From Patescibacteria group bacterium (lineage in GTDB: Bacteria; Patescibacteriota; Kazan-3B-28; UBA10110): DNA of 64,000 nt. The DNA is taken from NCBI GenBank assembly GCA_043802665.1, contig JAZDKW010000020.1, forward strand, positions 7,036-71,035, given 5' to 3'. A model generated the notes under the pieces. That model had not been told where the DNA came from. It made no database searches and saw only the letters and a program-made list of their open reading frames with translations. This document shows positions 2,392-51,105 of the stretch, piece after piece. A program made the position numbers and the translations under genes. The first letter of the stretch is position 1; the number at the start of each line of letters is the position of its first letter.

Positions 2392-2678
2392 AGCATCTAA
2401 GTTACCTGTTTATTTTACCATTCTTACCAACAAATCAATAAATTAAACCGGCCCCACCAATGCATTGGTCCTAAGTTATTTTTTGCTACTTTTAGAACCA
2501 GTTAATTTGGTTAGCCGCAATGTTGGTCCCCCAAAAGATGATGTAAGGACCAACTATCTGGATAATGACTATGGAAACTATGATCACGGCTAATTGTCGC
2601 CAGAATGAATTAGTAAAATCCCTCTGGCGGGTCGCCTCTTCACGGAAATTCTGGATGAACTTTTGACTAACTATCATA

Positions 2679-38532: not shown

Positions 38533-38943
38533 TTAATCTAGTTTTTCCTCTTCTACTTCGAAAGTTGGTTTAGCTGTTGGCGTGTCTTCGGATACATTTT
38601 GCATCTGACTGCTACCTTTTAGAATGCCCCCGGGTTCAATTGATAAAGCTTGGCTAGTAACATCACCCATAACTCTTCCAGTTTCAAGAATTTGTAATTT
38701 TGCTTGAGCTTTGATGTCTCCATCAACCTCGCCACTCACATAAACATTTTTGGCATCAATTTCTGCTTTGACTTTACCATGTTCTCCCACAATCAAATCT
38801 CCGGAAATTTCAATTTCGCCAGTAAACTGTCCATTAATTTGTACATCACCTTCTCCTTTTAACTCGCCTTCTACAACAACCTCTTTGCCGATCAAAGTAT
38901 CGAGATGTTCGGAGTCAGCAAAATCTTTGCGATCTTTTGCCAT
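38533..38943 (-). CDS. bactofilin
   Basis: 136 aa; repetitive beta-helical (V/I)xGx(V/I) pattern typical of bactofilin/DUF583. Confidence 0.75.
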   Translation of the reverse strand: MAKDRKDFADSEHLDTLIGKEVVVEGELKGEGDVQINGQFTGEIEISGDLIVGEHGKVKAEIDAKNVYVSGEVDGDIKAQAKLQILETGRVMGDVTSQALSIEPGGILKGSSQMQNVSEDTPTAKPTFEVEEEKLD

Positions 38944-39114
38944 TAATTGATTTTAAATACCACAAATATTATATGTGTTAATCCAAAGTTCGTAAAGATA
39001 AACTATTTTTTAAATAATGATCAAAAATGGCTCTGAGATTGACATATTTGACCATAATCTGCATAGGGGGTATAATCTAACTTCTGCTCAAATCTCTTAA
39101 TCTTTAGATTAAAT

Positions 39115-44739: not shown

Positions 44740-45225
44740 TTATTTCTTTGGTTGTTTTTGTCTGCAATTTTTCCCCCTGTATGTTTCAGTTAAACTATGG
44801 CAGTTCGGGCAAAGAATTCTTAGATTTTTAATTCGATTATCGTGCCTGTCCCCATTAATGTGGTCTAACTCTAATGGCAAATGTCCGGTAGCACTACATT
44901 TAGCCCAGCCACATTGTTCACAATACATAGGTTTTAATTTGGCACTAAATAATCTTTTTTTAAGCTTGAAGCTTTGGAAGTTACTATTTTTAGTGAGAAT
45001 TTTATCTAGGGGAATGCGCGGTTTACCGATACCTTTCATGCCAGCATTCCAGCCTTTACCTCGAAAGTGTTGAATATCGAGATTAAATTCTTGAATATAT
45101 TTCTGAATCTGTTCATAATTGCCACCAGCAGGACGCAATCCTAGTTTTAGCAATACTTGGCGTATGCTAAAAGATTTTCGCACAGCTTGCCTCAATGCTT
45201 TTATTGTCCATTTTCTTTTACGCAT
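44740..45225 (-). CDS. HNH endonuclease (free-standing homing-endonuclease-like)
   Basis: C-terminal HNH/zinc motif CEQCGW...HLPLELDHINGDRHDNRIKNLRILCPNCH. The ORF-track N-terminus overlaps tRNA-Leu, so the start is placed at the internal MRKRKW (45225), preceded by a TATAAT box. Confidence 0.65.
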   Translation of the reverse strand: MRKRKWTIKALRQAVRKSFSIRQVLLKLGLRPAGGNYEQIQKYIQEFNLDIQHFRGKGWNAGMKGIGKPRIPLDKILTKNSNFQSFKLKKRLFSAKLKPMYCEQCGWAKCSATGHLPLELDHINGDRHDNRIKNLRILCPNCHSLTETYRGKNCRQKQPKK

Positions 45226-45285
45226 ATTATCATTATACGATAAGGGTAAAGGCATAAGTAATGCTATTTTTGTGCGTGTTCTATT

Positions 45286-45369
45286 TGGTGGGCAGAGTGG
45301 GACTCGAACCCACAAGCCTTGCGGCACAGCATTTTAAGTGCTGCGTGTATACCATTCCACCACCTGCCC
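45286..45369 (-). tRNA. tRNA-Leu(UAA), type II with long variable arm, CCA encoded
   Basis: Manual fold: GGGCAGG acceptor, anticodon loop CUUAAAA, long variable arm, T-arm GGGTTCGAGTCCC. Confidence 0.75.
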
Positions 45370-45556: not shown

Positions 45557-45592
45557 AGCAGTTTAATAAAAAGTTTGAATAAAGAGATTGTG

Positions 45593-45886
45593 TGGTGCCG
45601 CGGGACGGGATCGGACCGCCGACGCATGCCTCTTCCGAAGCATTTGGACTATCTCATTCTCCATTTAGCAATGGAGATTGGGCGCTAATGTGGGATTATC
45701 GTTGGGACTCACCCACTAGTCTCTACACCTTCCTCGCTATCATATGCCCGGCGAGGCTTGGCTCGGGATTGTCAAACACATGGCGTGTGTTTGGTTTTCC
45801 CCGAATTCACCCAATTTTTCAATCCTAGTTACCTAGGAAAGCCCCGAAGATTCCAGGGCATCGCTCTACCACTGAGCTACCGCGGC
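45593..45886 (-). tRNA. tRNA-Phe(GAA), interrupted between U33 and G34 by a group I intron
   Basis: The 5' exon is 45855-45886, GCCGCGGUAGCUCAGUGGUAGAGCGAUGCCCU. The 3' exon is 45593-45635, GAAGAGGCAUGCGUCGGCGGUCCGAUCCCGUCCCGCGGCACCA. Joined, they give a canonical 75-nt tRNA with anticodon loop CUGAAGA. The T-loop UCCGAUC is atypical. Confidence 0.6.
45636..45854 (-). ncRNA. group I intron (~219 nt) in the tRNA-Phe anticodon loop
   Basis: The 5' exon ends in U and pairs with the intron GGGG (P1). The intron UCUUC pairs with the 3' exon GAAGA (P10). The P7 halves GUAGAGACUAGUG (R-like) and GAGAUAGUCC (S-like, consensus AAGAUAUAGUCC) are present, and the intron ends in G. There is no internal ORF. 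Confidence 0.6.
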
Positions 45887-46788
45887 AATATTTATTCACA
45901 CCAAAATAATATCAGCATTAAACCTATTTTTCAATGCCGTATCGGTAGAACAGAAAACTAGATTTCTAATTAACTGTTCCACAATTAGTTATAAAATAAA
46001 CCCTTGATCTTCGGGGGATTTTGGGTTGTGGTATAGGAGGAAAGTGGGTGTGGATATCACAGAAAGTGGCTCTGGGAGTATAATATTCTTGACAGGAACC
46101 TCAATTAGGAGTATGCTTAAATTATAAGGGTGATAAACAGATTTGGTTGATTCGGCAGATTAAAAATTAGGTCTAAGAGGAGAGACGCGAGATCGGCGTT
46201 ACGGATCACATTAGACCTGGGTCTAAATAATTTAGATCTAAGGAAGCTAGCAGAGGTCTGCTACGCGACTGCATGGCTAATGGCTACTAACTGTAAATAA
46301 TAAATTTTATCGTCATTCTGGCTTGTCCAGAATCGTATAAATAAAAGAGCAGTTGGGAGATCTCTTCTTTGGTAAAAATACGAACGAAGAGATCTCTTGA
46401 CTGCTTTTTTGTTTACCCCGTAGCTCCACTACTAGCGGATGGTATCGGGGTTTAGTCGCAGGAGACGCATTCTGTTTGTCATCCTGAGCGGATCCGCCAG
46501 TTGGCGGAGGAGTCGAAGGATCTGTCTGTAAGATCCTGACCTGTGCCAGCATGACTGAATTGAAAAATTGTTTAGTCGCAGGAGACGCGAAGAGGAGAAA
46601 TATAAATGGGGAATCCAGGCACATAATTATGTAGGCCTAGGTAATTTCTCTCAAGCACTCATCTTCGCATCTCCTCTGATTATGTTATTCGTCATCCTGA
46701 ACTTGTTTCAGGATCTCAGATATCACATCGGAGAGAACATTTGAAAAAATCTGGTGACGCAATGTCGCCATTCCCTGGGAGGGGAAAA

Positions 46789-46938
46789 ATGGAAGAGAAA
46801 GACGGACAAGAAACTCAACAAAGTACTTCTGATGATTCGACGGGCACGACGGATTCGTTCGATGGTGATCGGTCGTGGGACACAGACCGCAATAACCACC
46901 GGTTACCCCTTGGGAATGGGGGGTATGTGTTCGCATAA
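46789..46938 (+). CDS. possible small acidic protein (49 aa)
   Basis: GGGAGGGG SD before the ATG; low-complexity D/T/S-rich product; weak. Confidence 0.25.
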   Translation: MEEKDGQETQQSTSDDSTGTTDSFDGDRSWDTDRNNHRLPLGNGGYVFA

Positions 46939-47202
46939 AACGGCTAGGGGAGAGCCATCAATCTCCCCAAAATCTTTCTTTGCGGATTCTGGCATTTCGG
47001 GTCGAATCTGCAGGGGTTCGACAATGATCGGACGAAACTTTCCCTAACGGGAAATGATTAACAATATCTCTGAGCCCTCAGCCTCTGCGTAGAGATACGG
47101 ATTGGCGCTATAGGGCAAGTGGAATCGGTCGGACTGCCACTTTAAATAAAGAATCCGAAAATGGGAGAGCTCTGTTGCTGGACACGCATTACCCAGCAAA
47201 CC

Positions 47203-47265
47203 ATCTCTCCCCCTCTTCTGAGTTTGTTACTTCGATAAGATAAAGTAGCAACTTCAGATGAGGGC
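47203..47265 (+). repeat. cassette hairpin element H0 (degenerate): CCCTCTTCTGAGTTTGTTAC ... AACTTCAGATGAGGG
   Basis: Inverted repeat read directly; followed by the conserved CGAATCTTGAAAATT motif. Confidence 0.55.
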
Positions 47266-47394
47266 TTGCTCTCAAAACGAATCTTGAAAATTAAATTCAA
47301 TCCAACTCTTGTAGAGAGCAATTTGGGTATAAATTATTTTCTGAAATGTTCGTATCCAAGTTGCTCTCTAAGAAGAGCAAAGGAGGCATGTCAA

Positions 47395-48588
47395 ATGCCT
47401 AAATTAATTAAGGTCGCCATTGGTGGCCCACCGAAATCCGGCACGACATGCTTTCTTGCCGGGTTATGCGAAAACCTTCCGAGGTTTTCGCGCTATCTCT
47501 TCCGGGCTTGCCCGGACGGAGAGGGAACTTGGACTTACAGGTCCGAGGCCTCTGCCAAGTATCGTCGCAAGGGGCAGTTCGCCCCGGGGCTGGTTGACTG
47601 GTACTGCCAGTCGCTAGCCAAGTGCGTGATGGCCCCGATCGTCCTCGTGGACATCGGTGGCCGTTGCTCTGATGAGAATTCCCGAATCCTTCGCGAAGGC
47701 GGAGTACAATTCGGGATAATCCTTTCCCCATCTCTGGAAGCAATTCCAGAATGGGAGAGATTTTTCCGCTCTTGCGGAGTGGAAGTAATCGCTCGAGTAA
47801 TCAGCGATTACAACGGCACTGATGACATTACTATTGATGCCGACCCGATGGTCGTGCATCATCTTGATCGGGAGGTAAGCGCAGAGGAATTGGCAACTCG
47901 GCCAACCATTCAGAAGGTGGCTGAAATTATTTTGGGGTTGATCGCCCCGGAGGAAACAGAAATGAACATTCTTTCTTCATTGATTACTCCCGACGGGGTC
48001 ATCACGGTTGCCGCTCTTGCGGCCGCCCTCGGTAAGACTGCAGTTGAAAGGGCTTTGCCGAATGGCAAAGTCATCCCCCAGATCGTCTGGGAGGGTGCGG
48101 ACTTGGTCCGCATCGCCGAGCTCCTGCACAACCGCTCGGCAGAAATGCCGGAAGTTGTGAGGATCGACGGCCCCGCTCCGGCGTGGCTCGTTGCGTCGCT
48201 CACTCACGAGTGCCATCCGCGGATGGTGGCATTGAATAGTGCTGACGGATTCGTCAATGTTGGGTGCCGCCGGCCTTCCGGCGGCGGCGAGGGGATCAAC
48301 TTCAAGGTTGAGACCCGTCCCGACGACTGGAAAGTCGTCACATTCGAGCTGGACCCCTCGGTCCCGCTCTCTCCGGCCGATCTTGACCGGATTGCCCCAC
48401 CTGACCTGGGCACCCTTGACTCGAAAGTAGTCCTTTCGGGTCGGGGGCCAAACTGGCTCTTTGCCAGTTTGGCCTTGGCATACCACGGCCGCGCCGGGGC
48501 CGTGGCCCGCTTCCAGCCGGGGACTGGTAGCACGGTCGTCTGGACCCACACTCAGAGTGTGGTACTCGGGGATAATATCCCTGAGTAA
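47395..48588 (+). CDS. P-loop-containing protein of unknown function (cassette gene A)
   Basis: SD AAAGGAGG 7 nt before ATG 47395; the ORF track extends to 47266 but no SD lies there. The N-terminus has a Walker-A-like KVAIGGPPKSGTT. The C-terminal half carries a duplicated motif GPAPAWLVASLTHECH / GRGPNWLFASLALAYHG. GC is ~60%, against ~40% for the window. Confidence 0.6.
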   Translation: MPKLIKVAIGGPPKSGTTCFLAGLCENLPRFSRYLFRACPDGEGTWTYRSEASAKYRRKGQFAPGLVDWYCQSLAKCVMAPIVLVDIGGRCSDENSRILREGGVQFGIILSPSLEAIPEWERFFRSCGVEVIARVISDYNGTDDITIDADPMVVHHLDREVSAEELATRPTIQKVAEIILGLIAPEETEMNILSSLITPDGVITVAALAAALGKTAVERALPNGKVIPQIVWEGADLVRIAELLHNRSAEMPEVVRIDGPAPAWLVASLTHECHPRMVALNSADGFVNVGCRRPSGGGEGINFKVETRPDDWKVVTFELDPSVPLSPADLDRIAPPDLGTLDSKVVLSGRGPNWLFASLALAYHGRAGAVARFQPGTGSTVVWTHTQSVVLGDNIPE

Positions 48589-48627
48589 GAATTGCACATT
48601 TTCAGAGGGAGAGCTTCGTCTCTCCCT

Positions 48628-48799
48628 CCTTCATCCGAGTTCACCATTATTCATTGTCCGTCATTCCGGCCTACGAGCCGGAATCTAGATCCTGAATCGT
48701 ATTAATTATACGATCCTGGACAAAGCCAGGATGACGAAGTAAGGAATACTTCATCAGTTCAGGATGACGCATAAGTAAATGATGAATTCAGATGAGGGA
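48628..48799 (+). repeat. cassette hairpin element H1: CCTTCATCCGAGTTCACC ... AATGATGAATTCAGATGAGGGA, with a ~130-bp MITE nested in its loop
   Basis: Arms read directly. The insert at 48646-48777 has terminal inverted repeats CGTCATTCCGG/CAGGATGACG. The element is preceded by the hairpin GAGGGAGAGcttcgtCTCTCCCTC. Confidence 0.65.
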
Positions 48800-48956
48800 G
48801 AAATCTCTTAACACCGAATCTTGAAAATTGAAAATTATTTCTCTTGTGGAGAGTCACATCCTCACAATCTATTTTGTGATGAGCTGACTCTCCATCAGGA
48901 GAGAAAAATATAGCCGGAATGCCCTGTAAACCGGTCAAGGGGCAAGGAGGCCAAAA

Positions 48957-49766
48957 ATGGCCAAAAAAATATTACGTCTGAATGAAGAGCAGTTTAATCT
49001 GCTCAGGAACGCTGTGCGAGAGAATCAGATTAAACGGGATAAGTTGAAGAGTCGGATGGTAGAAATACTATCCGAACTCAACTCTCTTTGCCGAGGCTTT
49101 ATTTTCTCGGATGGTACTTCTGTTGTGTCAGTTAATTTCTATGCTTTCTGGTCTTTTTCGACCGGGAGATGGAATTGCGAGGATCTGGGGTATAAGTCGG
49201 GTTTTCCGACTATCCCCCAGCGCGACAAGCGTTGGCCGGAGTTGACTGTTGCCGTGCCGGAACTGTCGGCATTAATGACGGAGTATGAGTTAAACAAGAA
49301 GGCAATGGGGGAAATTGCACATCTCACCATCGCGCCTCAGTACAGGAAAGTGCGAGGGTACTATGAAGTTGACTCAACAGAGTGGGATCGTCTTGTAGAT
49401 AGCCCCAACACCTCTTCTGGATTTTTCTGGGAAACGGAAGAAAGCGGGGGAGGCATGACAAACACCGGCTATAGCCAGGTTGTTTGTCTTCTGAGCGGTA
49501 ATCCCGCAATTGCATATTGTCTTGGACATCACGCAAATGATGTGCATGCGCGGTTCCGGTTCAGGTCCAAGTTCAGGTGGATTGAAGTTCGTGTTAAACG
49601 CTATCGGGAATCAGTTGAGATATCTGGTTGCGAAATGCCGAGTGGGGAAGAAATCTTTTATGCCACATGCATCGAAGAAGTTCCAGAATTTCTTCTGGAC
49701 GCCACCAAAGCGGCGATGGCCAAGGCAGATGATTATCACTGCCGGAAACCATATTTCATTTTTTGA
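48957..49766 (+). CDS. hypothetical protein (cassette gene B, 269 aa)
   Basis: SD AAGGAGG before the ATG; no recognisable motif. Confidence 0.6.
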   Translation: MAKKILRLNEEQFNLLRNAVRENQIKRDKLKSRMVEILSELNSLCRGFIFSDGTSVVSVNFYAFWSFSTGRWNCEDLGYKSGFPTIPQRDKRWPELTVAVPELSALMTEYELNKKAMGEIAHLTIAPQYRKVRGYYEVDSTEWDRLVDSPNTSSGFFWETEESGGGMTNTGYSQVVCLLSGNPAIAYCLGHHANDVHARFRFRSKFRWIEVRVKRYRESVEISGCEMPSGEEIFYATCIEEVPEFLLDATKAAMAKADDYHCRKPYFIF

Positions 49767-49795
49767 CCACCTTGTTCTTTCTTGGGTAATAAGAC

Positions 49796-49860
49796 GGGGG
49801 CCTTACGGCCCCCCTTTCATCTGAGTTTACCATCTGTAAATGATGAATTCAGATGAGGGA
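49796..49860 (+). repeat. terminator-like hairpin GGGGGCCTTACGGCCCCC followed by cassette hairpin H2 (CCTTTCATCTGAGTTTACC ... TGAATTCAGATGAGGGA)
   Basis: Read directly. Confidence 0.65.
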
Positions 49861-49913
49861 ATCATCTCTCAAATTTTCTCGGCAAAATGCCGAAATGAAC
49901 CTTGAGGTGTAAC

Positions 49914-50171
49914 ATGGCTGTTGGTAAGTGGACCACTACTGTTATCGGAGTATATTGGGACAAAATGATCGACGGTATAGCTGAGGAATTTGTCTATAGG
50001 CTATACAAAGAGTTATCTGCCGAAGAGATCAATATACTTGTAGATGAGGCGTTCAAAAATATGTCTCTTTTGCCACCACAACTTGCAGATTGTATAAAAG
50101 CAACGGTTGTTGAAATGAAGAACCGAAAACCGATAATTGCTTATCCTCCTACCACGGGAGAATCTGGATAG
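49914..50171 (+). CDS. hypothetical small protein (cassette gene C, ~85 aa)
   Basis: SD GAGGTG before ATG 49914; the ORF track starts at 49902. Confidence 0.5.
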   Translation: MAVGKWTTTVIGVYWDKMIDGIAEEFVYRLYKELSAEEINILVDEAFKNMSLLPPQLADCIKATVVEMKNRKPIIAYPPTTGESG

Positions 50172-50177
50172 ATTCTC

Positions 50178-50245
50178 CCCCTTCATCCGAGTTCAGCATT
50201 CGGCAAGCTCATGACAGAGCACGAATAATGAATTCAGATGAGGGG
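50178..50245 (+). repeat. cassette hairpin H3: CCCTTCATCCGAGTTCAGCAT-(27 nt)-AATGAATTCAGATGAGGGG
   Basis: Read directly. Confidence 0.65.
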
Positions 50246-50287
50246 CAACTCTCAATTCGAAATTTGAAAATACAAGGAGGCACGAAA

Positions 50288-50572
50288 ATGCCGAAAAAGC
50301 CATGGTTCATTAAGATTTTATGCTACGGGATGATTATCGGGAGCATAGCATTGATTGTTGTTATGCTCTCGAGTGGTTTCTATTCTGAACTATTCATTTC
50401 CCCAGCGGAGTCACGCTGGTGGTGGGTGCTAATTAACCCAACACCAGAAGCTATTGATCACGGGACACTGTGGATGTGGGTGCTTGCAGTGTTCCCAGTT
50501 GTGACGGCGATACTTGGGGTTCTGGGTTTGGGTCGTTGCTCCCTCGGGGCATCATCCCCCTTGGTCTCTTAG
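50288..50572 (+). CDS. small two-TM membrane protein (cassette gene D, ~94 aa)
   Basis: SD AAGGAGG before ATG 50288; the upstream part of the ORF-track version just translates hairpin H3. Confidence 0.55.
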   Translation: MPKKPWFIKILCYGMIIGSIALIVVMLSSGFYSELFISPAESRWWWVLINPTPEAIDHGTLWMWVLAVFPVVTAILGVLGLGRCSLGASSPLVS

Positions 50573-50607
50573 CTCTCTGCTATCCTCTTTGTTCTTTTGT
50601 GGATACA

Positions 50608-50673
50608 CGGGGGCCTTACGGCCCCCCCTTCATCCGAGTTCAGCATCTACAAATGATGAATTCAGATGAGGGA
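50608..50673 (+). repeat. terminator-like hairpin CGGGGGCCTTACGGCCCCC followed by cassette hairpin H4 (CCTTCATCCGAGTTCAGCAT-tacaaa-TGATGAATTCAGATGAGGGA)
   Basis: Read directly. Confidence 0.65.
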
Positions 50674-50733
50674 GATAAGCACGCAAAAAATATAATAAAG
50701 AATATAATAAAAATAGATTAACAAATAGTCGGT

Positions 50734-50916
50734 GGGAGGCTGTAAGAAATTTGAAAGGAATTTTACCCCGTAAAAAGTTTTACTTTTTTCGGGGCGAATC
50801 AGGGTTCAATGTTTGGTCCCTGAAACCGAAAGGAAGAGGGGATTAATTTCTCTCCTCAAGAGCATCGGTTCTTGATTCGTATAATTTCAATCTAAATTTT
50901 CTTACAGCCTTCTGTT
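50734..50916. other. ~180-bp structured non-coding element bounded by the 15-bp inverted repeat GGCTGTAAGAAATT / AATTTTCTTACAGCC, with nested hairpins (CCCCGtaaaaagttttacttttttCGGGG)
   Basis: Read directly; no ORF; lies between the cassette array and the pseudo-tRNA. Confidence 0.4.
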
Positions 50917-50975
50917 GGCTATTTTTTATTGTTGTACTTTTCTGTAGAATAGATGTAGCTTATCTTTGAGAAGAT

Positions 50976-51105
50976 ATGGGCACTTAGCTCAGTCCGAACG
51001 GGACCCCTTCGGGGTTGGTTACCCGCCCGTACCGAACGGGTACGTTCGGGTGGGGAGCGTTCGGTTTACATCCGAAAGGTCGGGGTTCGCCCCGCATCTG
51101 AAGAT
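50976..51105 (+). pseudogene. degenerate tRNA-Val-like sequence
   Basis: It keeps a tRNA-like 5' end GGGCACTTAGCTCAGT and an anticodon arm identical to tRNA-Val (CGGTTTACATCCG). A ~55-nt insertion sits in the D-loop, the T-arm is truncated, and no acceptor 3' strand or CCA is present. Confidence 0.5.

Follow-up and report, generated by a model that had tools for sequence, protein, structure and literature searches.

A cassette-like gene array with conserved double-hairpin linkers in a Patescibacteria genome

The locus described here is a real, cassette-like array that is not an integron. It lies on a contig from a Patescibacteria metagenome-assembled genome and consists of four + strand genes (A to D) whose boundaries carry the same hairpin in five copies (H0 to H4) within the 64-kb stretch of DNA that was analyzed (the window), the number of linkers being n + 1 for n genes. 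The most likely reading, held tentatively and drawn from sequence comparison, is that the linker acts as RNA (in processing, stability, and translation) and also provides a source of homology for the swapping of ORFs in a resident accessory operon. The earlier note on this DNA had described the repeats as not classical attC and the integrase as missing, and the searches of the window bore this out: no recombinase or transposase domain was detected in ORFs of at least 120 aa, and no attC core (RYYYAAC or GTTRRRY) was detected within 15 nt of any hairpin.

Genes and linkers of the array

The genes, linkers, and platform features given below are all on the + strand. The earlier note had counted four Shine-Dalgarno (SD)-driven genes in a window where most housekeeping genes have no SD, and both points were confirmed: the four ORFs are present, each with a strong SD 6 to 9 nt upstream of the ATG (AGGAGG for A, B, and D; GAGG for C), while 37 of the 47 large ORFs of the window have no SD-like motif. 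A GC jump to about 55 to 60% had also been claimed. This was overstated, as it holds for gene A (58%; GC3, 64%), the sole GC-rich member, but not for B, C, and D (47%, 40%, and 49.5%, respectively; background, 42.9%). Over 46 to 51 kb, successive 1-kb segments have 45, 49, 54, 47, and 42% GC.

Gene A (47395 to 48588; 397 aa) is assigned by Pfam and PADLOC profiles to the AAA-Csx3 (Crn3-AAA) proteins and is, on this evidence, a predicted CRISPR-type, defense-related protein. The match to Pfam Cas_csx3 scored 64.2 bits (cutoff, 21), the PADLOC AAA-Csx3 profile covers residues 6 to 393, and 115 homologs were found. In the alignment, the Walker A motif reads GPPKSGTT, with Thr in place of the lysine, and the C-terminal Csx3 domain does not retain residues H57, D69, and R71 of AfCsx3. 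Compared with six other homologs, gene A of the window lineage has a 4-residue extension, MPK(L/S). No cas genes or CRISPR array were found in the window. Genes B, C, and D match no named family. Gene B (48957 to 49766; 269 aa) is an ORFan in its present form, with a beta-rich C-terminal domain that belongs to an unnamed family of 130- to 200-aa proteins; the fold of its AF2 model (pLDDT, 80.5) weakly matched that of the AFV1 ORF157 nuclease (E = 8e-3). Gene C (49914 to 50171; 85 aa), taken from the ORF list, had zero matches in Pfam, PHROG, and PADLOC, and gene D (50288 to 50572; 94 aa) is a hydrophobic ORFan whose 3' UTR is homologous to that of B. Of the defense or addiction module proposed earlier, the defense part was retained through the assignment of A, while addiction was not, B and D being ORFans and C being without a family match.

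Each linker was resolved into SL1, a gene-specific GC stem-loop; SL2, a conserved hairpin of ~20 bp; an A/U-rich leader, often with a TTGAAAAT box; and a shared start region, ATG CCN AAA or ATG GCN, after the strong SD. Arm searches and a covariance model (R1) together supported five copies of one imperfect inverted repeat, as the earlier note had proposed. The right arm, ATGATGAATTCAGATGAGGG, has four matches at no more than one mismatch, all in the array (0.02 expected by chance), and the left arm has three (0.00 expected). The model found exactly five sites in the window, four at 71 to 76 bits and H1, which is split by an insert, at 37 bits. It gave no sixth copy in the 64 kb, the next match having E = 0.76. 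The check by covariance model also bears on the generic terminator that the earlier note had set against its own reading: the hairpin is missing from the remaining 60 kb of the window and is therefore not a generic terminator. Folding z-scores of the copies range from −3.8 to −6.8.

SL1 of H0 (47163 to 47211 by MFE fold) is GGGAGAG...CTCTCCC with an inner hairpin, and its SL2 (47212 to 47264) has diverged and shows compensatory changes close to the loop (model match, 47203 to 47282; 71.2 bits). The standing of H0 as the fifth copy (47209 to 47264) was upheld. For H1, folding gave SL1 as GAGGGAGAG..CTCTCCCTC (48605 to 48628), and arm search and the model gave SL2 as 48629 to 48798. The MITE reported in the H1 loop was recovered as a MITE-like insert of ~130 nt (~48648 to 48775), which matches repeats at 46.3 to 46.7 kb and is missing from the L012 copy. 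H2 has GGGGGCCTTACGGCCCCC as SL1 at 49796 to 49813, detected as a repeat, by folding, and by terminator scan, and SL2 at 49814 to 49859 (76.3 bits). In H3, SL1 by fold is GGGAGAATCT..AGATTCTCCC (50156 to 50179) and overlaps the stop codon of C, and SL2 (50180 to 50244; 71.6 bits) has a structured loop of 28 nt. H4 is the terminal copy, with SL2 at 50627 to 50672 (72.5 bits) and an SL1 (50609 to 50626) found by direct repeats to be identical to that of H2. The identical stem-loop before two copies and the box after three were likewise both found: GGGGGCCTTACGGCCCCC lies immediately ahead of H2 and H4, and a direct-repeat family, the CGAATCTTGAAAAT box (47278 to 47295, 48815 to 48832, and 50258 to 50275), lies 3' of H0, H1, and H3 (78% identity at H3). 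The latter box also occurs 3' of SL2 in two other loci, L017 and L002.

Conserved flanks and strain-variable content

The left platform (promoter, 49-aa ORF, mini-ORF, and first hairpin) and the right flank are conserved in relatives. The locus is headed by a promoter-like site, TTGACA-17-TATGCT (46089 to 46117), detected by a promoter scan, and this site plus the next ~100 nt is conserved in L010, L012, and L013. An inverted-repeat search gave a hairpin with 37-nt arms followed by a T-run (46338 to 46415), 84% conserved with L012 and L010, which is a canonical terminator or attenuator ending a conserved untranslated unit. An acidic 49-aa ORF with an SD (MEEKD...GNGGYVFA; 46789 to 46938) has a homologous ORF in L010 and L012. 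Alignment with relatives also revealed a 7-codon mini-ORF, MIGRNFP* (47024 to 47047), a candidate leader peptide with the counterparts MIGLNFP* (L010 and L012) and MIGWTFP* (L013). An invariant noncoding motif, GAGCCCT..GCCTCTGCG..CGGATTGGCGCYATAGGGCA (47072 to 47118), lies 5' of the first linker and is matched at 85% by L013 2083 to 2130. The right flank of the variable segment (50792 to 50992) has 92.5% identity to L010 and L012. The tRNA clusters said to flank the array are present on both sides, with a broken tRNA-Val-like gene at ~50981 to 51105. An island inserted at a tRNA, as suggested from these clusters, was not supported, the platform and the right flank being kept in relatives.

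Between these flanks the content varies from strain to strain in a cassette-like manner, as the earlier note had anticipated. In L001, a near-identical strain, gene A (97% identity) is followed by an unrelated 182-aa gene, while in L007, L010, and L012, which have flanks in common with the window, one hairpin and one unrelated 87-aa gene replace A to D. Positions 1 to 119 of L001 correspond to the H3 linker as far as ATG+9 of D, and positions 97 to 1684 correspond to the window from the SD of A to ATG+9 of B. The start ATGCCNAAA (MPK) is common to A of the window, A of L001, and D of the window and is contiguous with near-identical leaders. Homology between strains restarts at the first base of SL2. 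The breakpoints are thus at start codons (ATG+9) and at the SL1|SL2 junction, with none inside the hairpin, and the distance from the SL2 end ranges from ~43 nt (H3/D linker) to ~158 nt (H1/B linker). The earlier proposal of the boundary hairpin as a recombination site is left without direct support; the breakpoints lie at variable distances from it.

Folding of the linker and its possible roles

The structure of SL2 is maintained across distant lineages, with 90% of cells paired and 8 of 20 pairs changed on both sides; none of 500 shuffles was as good, and slid controls reached 36 to 51%. In 15 of 19 elements, compared to 3% of random positions, a GC-rich hairpin (6 bp or longer) ends no more than 2 nt from SL2, and SL1 directly abuts SL2 in 16 of 16 folded elements. 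The sequence is also conserved: 12 nt of the SL2 3' arm are invariant in 10 of 10 family copies, and 39 nt are 100% identical across species, the left flank being only ~71% identical. As judged from these alignments, arm conservation points to a putative partner that recognizes the sequence, or else to a recent spread by horizontal transfer. A general double-stranded RNase such as RNase III has no need for an invariant arm sequence. It is very improbable that selfish palindromes of the REP or MITE type, gathered in a permissive intergenic hotspot and with no role for the genes, account for the repeats. The region is MITE rich, SL2 loops have taken insertions at least three times, and REP elements are imperfect palindromes found also within operons, all of which count for such an origin. 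Compensatory change, the confinement of all copies in the 64 kb to the array, the strict position and orientation (right after SL1 and before leader and SD), and the missing RAYT in the window argue against it.

All copies found at all loci have the orientation of the flanking genes and always lie between co-oriented ORFs. Summed over 15 copies, the fold energy was −337 kcal/mol for sense versus −284 kcal/mol for antisense. The gain of the + over the − strand SL2 was 0.1 to 3.1 kcal/mol in four window copies (H0 and H2 to H4), and in L003 the sense fold was better by 6.6 to 12.3 kcal/mol in four of five copies and by 0.0 in L003c. The claim that mismatches become G-U on the + strand only was overstated: three stem positions are indeed G.U on that strand, but the commonest SL2 mismatch, C.A (7 of 10 copies), would be G.U on the − strand.

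From these data we infer action at the RNA level. Covariation and co-orientation are, however, compatible with a DNA-level role because single-stranded DNA folds as RNA does and tolerates G.T better than any other mismatch. The hairpins would then be single-stranded-DNA recombination sites, attC-like without an integrase or of the IS200/IS605 type (HUH/Y1), where an enzyme from another part of the genome would excise and insert cassettes. This would suit the co-oriented, apparently promoterless ORFans, the species-specific structured repeat, and the strain-variable content, and the SL2 loops resemble the variable part of attC in accepting inserts of 5 to 130 nt. The highly conserved arm suggests a sequence-specific protein, the + strand would be the lagging-strand template if the origin is near 39 kb (as GC skew suggests), and Y1_Tnp genes lie near AAA-Csx3 in L014 to L016 and L019. 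The DUF1874 motif is a precedent for an attC-like arrangement without an integrase (PMC5737381). We nevertheless consider such sites unlikely, since zero tyrosine, serine, or HUH recombinases were found in 64 kb, the cores occur at none of the hairpins, the better-folding strand is sense rather than the bottom strand as for attC, the breakpoints have no fixed point, and the common unit holds a leader, SD, and start codon that a recombination site would not need.

No U-tract was found after SL2, and canonical terminators occur elsewhere at the same loci (window 46338 to 46415, L010, and L014). SL1 with the pyrimidine-rich 5' arm of SL2 could still form a leaky intrinsic terminator or attenuator that sets the ratio of AAA-Csx3 to downstream product, SL2 only modulating read-through. 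The GC stem of SL1 is followed by TTTCATCT, TTTTTCTG, TTTCTCTG, or TTTCTCCG in H2, L017b, L014, and L020, the terminator scan flagged the H2 SL1, and the element is directly 3' of AAA-Csx3 in five to six lineages. This was deemed rather improbable, as a simple terminator rule is satisfied by the SL1 of just one of the five window linkers, several tails are C rich (CCTTCATCC), terminators with real T-runs end the same operons, and both the conserved 20-bp SL2 and the copy 5' of the first gene would be left unexplained.

The SL1+SL2 element lies 20 to 365 nt 3' of AAA-Csx3 in the window/L001, L003, L014 to L016, L017, L020, and, weakly, L002, lineages in which A is only 55 to 65% identical. It was not found after AAA-Csx3 in L018/L019, L021, and L022, which are type IV CRISPR linked or of other kinds; AAA-Csx3 homologs adjoin type IV CRISPR-Cas in L018, L019, and L021. 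Overall, the hairpin follows AAA-Csx3 at five to six of six loci without CRISPR and at zero of three others, an association subject to ascertainment bias, as the loci were fetched through A. HTH (TrmB) regulator genes adjoin AAA-Csx3 in L002, L003, and L014. SL2 RNA might accordingly be a specific ligand or substrate of AAA-Csx3 or a partner, both forming one unit, for example, for sensing or regulation in a defense or antidefense module; arm conservation beyond pairing needs and a Csx3 crystal structure with bound RNA (PMC7371418) fit this. We rate it as a slim prospect in view of that bias, of the six hairpin-found loci (L007, L008, and L010 to L013) with no A in the retrieved DNA, and of the window A itself, which has neither the Walker A lysine nor D69 and R71 in its C-terminal Csx3 domain.

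On the preferred reading, an RNA-acting linker in a resident operon, the locus would be a strain-variable accessory operon of the Patescibacteria genome, with horizontally acquired genes behind a conserved platform of promoter, untranslated leader, 49-aa ORF, and 7-codon leader ORF. In the transcript, the linker would separate and insulate the cistrons, possibly with endonucleolytic processing at or beside the double hairpin, after which every mRNA would carry a protective SL1 at its 3' end and SL2 at its 5' end. It may also give foreign ORFs an efficient translation start in a host most of whose genes have no SD. Because the linkers are repeated and common to strains, they would offer homology for whole-ORF exchange and hence cassette-like variation. 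Homologous recombination covers swapping between existing linkers and not the first in-frame fusion of unrelated ORFs to the start region.

Comparison with known systems

Like integron arrays and CALINs, the array has co-oriented, mostly ORFan, apparently promoterless genes with a structured, species-specific inverted repeat, imperfect and of variable loop, between them, and its conserved platform is followed by content that differs from strain to strain. Unlike them, it has no intI and no R''/R' cores, its sense strand folds at least as well as the antisense strand, its breakpoints are not fixed in the repeat, and its unit includes a leader, SD, and start codon. The DUF1874 motif of Weinberg et al. 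(2017) is a multistem structure with conserved nucleotides in 5' UTRs and consecutive intergenic regions, arranged motif-ORF-motif-ORF, for which an integrase was not seen and the function is unknown (PMC5737381). Its name comes from a ring-nuclease family, and the array carries a gene of the Csx3 ring-nuclease family; in Rfam scans at E values up to 5 to 10, the linker matched no described RNA family.

In phage T7 and SP82 early genes, RNase III processing hairpins yield stable monocistronic mRNAs. There, as here, similar conserved hairpins of ~20 bp lie before the first, between, and after the last genes of an operon, but the linker, known from sequence, has conservation beyond RNase III needs, an SL1 abutting each hairpin, and a chromosomal CPR location. 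REP/BIME elements with RAYT are likewise species-specific imperfect palindromes in operons and can stabilize upstream mRNA; REPs are dispersed genome-wide, often in alternating orientation, whereas here there is one array in one orientation and no RAYT in the window. Gene A matches AAA-Csx3/Crn3-AAA (PADLOC PDLC01059; Pfam PF09620) over its full length, with an N-terminal P-loop domain and two Csx3-like stretches, and departs from such proteins in having no cas genes or CRISPR array in the window, Thr for the Walker A lysine, and a C-terminal Csx3 domain that does not keep the AfCsx3 residues named above. Finally, by analogy only, the locus resembles antidefense (acr-type) operons of mobile elements, which likewise have strain-variable, small, unrelated ORFans between conserved flanks; the HTH (TrmB) genes beside AAA-Csx3 and the member of a ring-nuclease family, as with AcrIII-1, extend the likeness.

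The array genes and the AAA-Csx3 protein

The four-gene array described in the earlier note, with its hairpins, is real and lies at 47.2-50.7 kb of the window. Four open reading frames (ORFs) on the + strand were confirmed by ORF listing: gene A at 47395-48588, gene B at 48957-49766, gene C at 49914-50171, and gene D at 50288-50572. Their Shine-Dalgarno (SD) sequences were likewise found as claimed, 6-9 nt 5' of the ATG (AGGAGG at A, B, and D and GAGG at C), and the scarcity of such sites elsewhere was borne out, 37 of the 47 other large ORFs in the window having no SD-like motif. The reported jump in GC content held for gene A, at 58% (GC3 64%), but not for B (47%), C (40%), or D (49.5%), the background ORFs being at 42.9%. 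Housekeeping genes make up the rest of the window: the dcw cluster, DnaB, RpoB, and ribosomal and tRNA genes.

Gene A encodes an AAA-Csx3 fusion. Pfam PF09620 (Cas_csx3) was matched in two stretches at 64.2 bits (gathering cutoff 21), and the PADLOC model PDLC01059 'AAA-Csx3' covered residues 6-393 of 397 (E=2.9e-33). Homologs of ~390 aa numbered 115 at 32-61% identity, plus one at 97%. As a member of this family, A is atypical in its Walker A motif: Lys is replaced by Thr at codon 17 (47443-47445), giving GPPKSGTT, so that GxxxxGK[ST] is not intact, whereas seven homologs, including the 97%-identical copy from the near-identical strain L001, keep GPP(H/R)SGK(S/T) (GPPHSGKS or GPPRSGKT). The ring-nuclease residues of AfCsx3 are H57, H60, D69, R71, and H80 (PMC7371418). 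In the C-terminal Csx3 domain of A, H60 and H80 are kept, while H57 is replaced by L, D69 by Q, and R71 by G; for the middle domain, the reading was by eye alone. Because the Walker A motif is altered and H57, D69, and R71 are not kept, the activity of A is uncertain. The GC content of A exceeds that of its surroundings by 9-22 points in every lineage, which is consistent with horizontal movement of the gene.

Neither cas domains nor a CRISPR-like array was found around A in the 64 kb window. Some AAA-Csx3 homologs do have Cas6 and type IV cas genes (Csf1, Csf3, helicase) as neighbours, in the relative loci L018 (246-1082 and 3039-8216), L019, and L021 (1244-4413), and a CRISPR array is also present in L018. 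The usual cited context of Csx3 is type III, unlike this type IV setting. A divergent gene for a TrmB-family regulator was observed upstream of AAA-Csx3 in three lineages (L002, L003, and L014-L016); in L002 and L003 it adjoins the gene for a protein of 800-900 aa in which no domain was matched confidently.

The sole database record for protein B is a hypothetical protein from a 'Patescibacteria group bacterium' MAG. Structure prediction, which the earlier note had recommended, gave B a confident beta-rich C-terminal domain (pLDDT 80.5), but the fold search returned only a weak resemblance to the viral nuclease AFV1 ORF157. An exhaustive HMMER search placed this domain in an unnamed family of small proteins and found no other family, and a PDB sequence search gave no match. 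D was likewise an ORFan in the homolog search. Pfam, PHROGs, and PADLOC gave nothing usable for B and no match for C or D; the cassette genes of the relatives likewise drew no usable match from Pfam or PHROGs. When the cassette proteins were compared among themselves, no two were related.

Anatomy of the linker

The right arm of the repeat, ATGATGAATTCAGATGAGGG, occurs four times at ≤1 mismatch, all within the array (0.02 expected), and the left arm occurs three times (0.00 expected); the fifth copy, H0 (47209-47264), is divergent. The covariance model of the hairpin that had been called for (A1/R1), trained on ten family copies, matched exactly five places in the 64 kb window, all in the array, with the next best match at E=0.76. 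Since the matches are limited to these places, the hairpin is no generic terminator, and the pattern that the earlier note had set against its own reading, a hairpin after most genes, is not seen within the 64 kb.

The repeat extends beyond what was first noticed. The conserved hairpin, SL2, is built of 8 bp, a mismatch, 7 bp, a mismatch, and 3 bp (18-22 bp overall) around a loop of 4 to ~130 nt, and a GC-rich stem-loop, SL1, stands 0-2 nt ahead of every SL2. The sequence of SL1 changes from gene to gene, the minimum free energy folds being GGGAGAG..CTCTCCC for H0, GAGGGAGAG..CTCTCCCTC for H1, GGGGGCC..GGCCCCC for both H2 and H4, and GGGAGAATCT..AGATTCTCCC for H3. A hairpin of the SL1 type ends ≤2 nt from SL2 in 15 of 19 elements from six lineages, compared with 3% of random window positions. 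On the 3' side, SL2 is followed by CTCTYAA, often by a TTGAAAAT box, sometimes by an extra small hairpin, and then by the SD sequence and ATG. There are n+1 linkers for n genes.

The shared sequence reaches into the genes. The start ATGCCNAAA (MPK) is common to A of the window and of L001, to D of the window, and to the third L001 gene, while ATGGC is common to B, its L001 replacement B', and C. In the window lineage, A carries a 4-residue extension, MPK(L/S), relative to six other homologs, and it looks as if the start codon had been donated by the linker. B and D have their 3' UTR and SL1 in common.

The claim that mismatched positions become G-U pairs on the + strand only was correct in part: on the + strand, three positions of the stem form G.U, but C.A, which is the most frequent mismatch (7 of 10 copies), would be G.U on the - strand. 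The preference for the + strand is modest in the window, at 0.1-3.1 kcal/mol in four of the five copies, H1 not among them. Over 15 copies, folding energies sum to -337 kcal/mol on the sense strand versus -284 kcal/mol on the other, and the advantage of the sense strand is 6.6-12.3 kcal/mol in four of five copies of the relative locus L003.

Rfam at gathering thresholds matched only tRNAs and a group I intron, and at E up to 5-10 nothing credible was found over the hairpins. A self-cleaving ribozyme of known kind was discarded as there was no Rfam match in the window. In the relative locus L013, a type III hammerhead-like sequence (CTGATGAG...CGAAAC) was observed 3' of the cassette gene at 2613-2676 (+), its 35.8 bits being below the Rfam gathering score of 48.5. 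MITE-like elements of the GTCATCCTGA / GTCATTCCGG type were observed in SL2 loops, representing at least three separate insertions (window 48648-48775, L010 2890-2975, and L013 2178-2250); relatives of these elements occur at 46300-46720 of the window, and the L012 hairpin is uninterrupted.

Several further readings of the linker were rejected. The TTGAAAAT box has no usable -10 at 16-18 nt in H0, H1, H3, or L002 and was not accepted as a -35 element, and a helix closing around SL1 and SL2 (ATTTTCA/TGAAAAT) was present in H1 only. A frame running from an ATG in the SL2 3' arm to a TGA in the TTGAAAAT box (47255-47287, 48789-48824, and 50235-50267 in H0, H1, and H3) has 9-10 codons, the stop not counted; it is probably coincidental, having no SD and an ATG buried in the stem, and is not kept in L017.

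Exchange of genes among relatives and wider distribution

Comparison with relatives, as had been proposed, showed gene content to vary by strain, which makes the array cassette-like. L001, an ENA contig of 2.7 kb, carries a 97%-identical A behind an H3-type linker that equals the linker of window D up to ATG+9. The H1 linker of the window, loop insert included, comes next after this A. Beyond this linker lie an unrelated 182-aa gene, another SL1+SL2 pair, and a third unrelated gene. The breakpoints coincided with the limits of the ORFs: sequences match across the linker as far as ATG+9, then cease to match, and match again from the first base of the next SL2. Between the window and L001, homology ends at ATG+9 of both D and B, which puts the 5' breakpoint ~43 nt past the end of SL2 in the H3/D linker and ~158 nt past it in the H1/B linker.

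Six real loci were recovered when metagenomes were scanned with the arm of the hairpin. The relatives L007, L010, and L012 are syntenic with the window: the tRNA clusters, the promoter, the 49-aa ORF, the mini-ORF, and the conserved motif all recur in them, as does the right flank at 92.5% identity, with DUF218 and LemA downstream in L007 and L010. Where the window has A-D, each of the three has one linker, an 87-aa gene, and a canonical terminator. L008 and L013 have a small membrane-protein gene behind a linker. The proposal that the array is an island inserted at a tRNA was not upheld, as both flanks and the left platform are kept in the relatives. Over a 39-nt stretch that comprises the SL2 3' arm and a further 16 nt, L010 and the window are 100% identical, against only ~71% for the left flank. 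Such an invariant arm would imply either a sequence-specific partner or very recent spread.

The flanks hold further features. At 45588-45890 (-), a group I intron (Rfam Intron_gpI, 66 bits at 45626-45864) interrupts a tRNA gene whose two halves correspond to the intact tRNA-Phe(GAA) of L008, and an HNH endonuclease ORF adjoins at 44740-45327. At 46089-46415 (+), a promoter-like TTGACA-17-TATGCT precedes a conserved untranslated unit of ~300 nt that ends in a strong hairpin and T-run. This unit matched no Rfam family, is kept in L010, L011, L012, and L013, has an analog in L017, and may act as an sRNA or as the leader/attenuator of the array. A conserved acidic ORF of 49 aa with an SD follows at 46789-46938 (+) (MEEKD...GDRSWD...GNGGYVFA; homologs in L010 and L012), and its product looks like a small secreted-peptide or precursor-like protein. 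At 47024-47118 (+), a seven-codon mini-ORF with its own SD, MIGRNFP* (MIGLNFP* in L010 and L012 and MIGWTFP* in L013), is followed by the invariant motif CGGATTGGCGCYATAGGGCA; together they are a candidate leader-peptide or attenuation element controlling the array.

On the right, a 34-nt long-range inverted repeat surrounds ~140 nt of conserved sequence at 50719-50928 (+) and has a T-run behind it, immediately ahead of the tRNA cluster. It overlaps the conserved right flank (50792-50992, 92.5% identical to L010 and L012) and is presumably a large terminator or structured RNA. At 3587-3780 of L010, the anticodon region of a tRNA-Val-like gene contains a complete tRNA-Val gene, and the window counterpart at 50981-51105 is a broken tRNA with an insert in the D-arm region, scoring 28.5 bits against Rfam tRNA, just below the gathering score. 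Farther away, the cumulative GC skew has its minimum at ~38900-39100, where gene orientation turns from - to +. This is consistent with a replication origin, in which case the array would be co-directional with replication.

For the wider distribution, R1, trained on the window family alone, was tested on untrained hairpins of other AAA-Csx3 loci. It scored 50 and 31 bits in L017, 31 bits in L014 and L015, 35 bits in L020, and weakly in L002 and L003. Each match was an SL1+SL2 pair 20-365 nt past the AAA-Csx3 stop codon, and in L003 six such pairs set A and small unknown genes apart. In the cross-lineage SL2 alignment, 90% of cells were paired and changes on both sides were seen in 8 of 20 pairs, with 0 of 500 shuffles as good. 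The linker recurs beside AAA-Csx3 in distant candidate-phyla lineages, the association of hairpin with A being biased in that L002, L003, L014, L015, and L017-L022 were fetched through A. A was present in the retrieved DNA of none of the six hairpin-fetched loci, and the element was absent from three AAA-Csx3 loci of other kinds: L018/19 and L021, whose neighbours are type IV cas genes and, in L018, a CRISPR array, and L022. Searching 185,579 species-representative genomes with the arm of the hairpin gave one chance match, as did IMG/VR; the family is therefore narrow, with no sign of phage origin.

Proposed action of the linker and comparison with known systems

The linker is proposed to be an intercistronic module that would act in the transcript. 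It would insulate the polycistronic RNA and probably have it processed beside the double hairpin, leaving each cistron with hairpin-protected ends. It would also give an efficient translation start in an SD-poor genome, and its repetition would allow ORFs to be swapped through homologous recombination. Action as RNA is supported by the following: the linkers are oriented strictly as the genes and lie between cistrons; n genes are accompanied by n+1 copies; folding on the whole favours the sense strand; SL1 is particular to the gene upstream, whereas SL2, leader, SD, and start are shared; and canonical terminators are used at the operon ends of the same loci. The mechanism is read from sequence, and we prefer it with a confidence falling somewhat short of even.

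The hairpins could instead be single-stranded DNA (ssDNA) recombination sites, as sequence analysis alone does not distinguish ssDNA from RNA action. However, there is no recombinase within 64 kb and no attC core at the hairpins, the strand that folds better is not the one that attC uses, and the distance of the breakpoint from SL2 is variable, and we consider such sites unlikely. These gradings weigh the transcript evidence against three points: ssDNA would fold as RNA does, the SL2 3' arm is invariant, and exchange between linkers would not account for the first in-frame fusions to a common start. An attenuator, a protein partner, and a selfish repeat were each ranked below both action in the transcript and DNA sites. 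A double-stranded operator of the dif/Xer or TrmB type was rejected for SL2 as a loop of 4 to ~130 nt is incompatible with fixed half-site spacing.

A conserved linker joining interchangeable foreign genes would show how accessory genes, possibly for defence or anti-defence, can be kept and shuffled without an integron in candidate-phyla bacteria, which have tiny genomes and few recognised mobile-element systems. It confers a strong SD and a common start on each foreign ORF, most ORFs of the host window having no SD. It is a structured element with good covariation support and no Rfam family, and its repeated co-occurrence offers a way into AAA-Csx3, an AAA fusion without a published function (PMC12409355). 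More doubtful than ssDNA sites is the broader idea that the linker marks an undescribed integrase-independent cassette system of these bacteria that travels with AAA-Csx3 and has an in-frame portable start, with either ORF-precise capture by a new ssDNA/RNA mechanism or an RNA partner of AAA-Csx3. If true, the system would parallel the unexplained DUF1874 motif arrays, and ring-nuclease-family genes would be tied to hairpin-delimited defence/anti-defence cassette arrays.

The earlier description of the array as integron-cassette-like was apt for its outcome, which resembles that of an integron or CALIN in its co-oriented genes, structured repeats between them, and content that varies among relatives, but the array departs from integrons in four defining tests. 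As the earlier note had stated, no integrase is present: no Phage_integrase, resolvase, Y1_Tnp, or DDE domain was found by Pfam in window ORFs of ≥120 aa and the array genes across 64 kb. The absence of RYYYAAC/GTTRRRY cores was also confirmed, none lying ≤15 nt from the five hairpins (regex, both strands, 47150-50720). In attC, the strand that folds for recombination is the bottom one as seen from the cassette ORFs, whereas here the sense strand folds as well or better. Finally, crossover in integrons falls at a fixed position of the repeat, whereas here the distance from SL2 varies from ~43 to ~158 nt. The literature on CPR or Patescibacteria, when searched, turned up nothing relevant on integrons or attC sites.

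Other repeat classes fit to differing degrees. REP/BIME-RAYT systems differ in that the palindrome is limited to the array within 64 kb and the window has no Y1_Tnp domain. Intrinsic terminators also differ, as only SL1 of H2 passes a terminator scan and a T-run never follows SL2. The early operons of T7 and SP82 carry RNase III sites, which resemble the array in arrangement; the ~20-bp stem between cistrons of such a site is matched by SL2, with its 18-22 bp and n+1 copies, as known here from sequence. The closest published precedent, likened by description, is the DUF1874 motif (PMC5737381), a multistem structure repeated from one intergenic region to the next that has neither an integrase nor an assigned function. 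The hairpins here matched no Rfam family. The strain-variable array, with its conserved, covarying two-hairpin linker outside Rfam, is a real and non-trivial feature, and it is the cassette-array theme in a new form rather than an integron.
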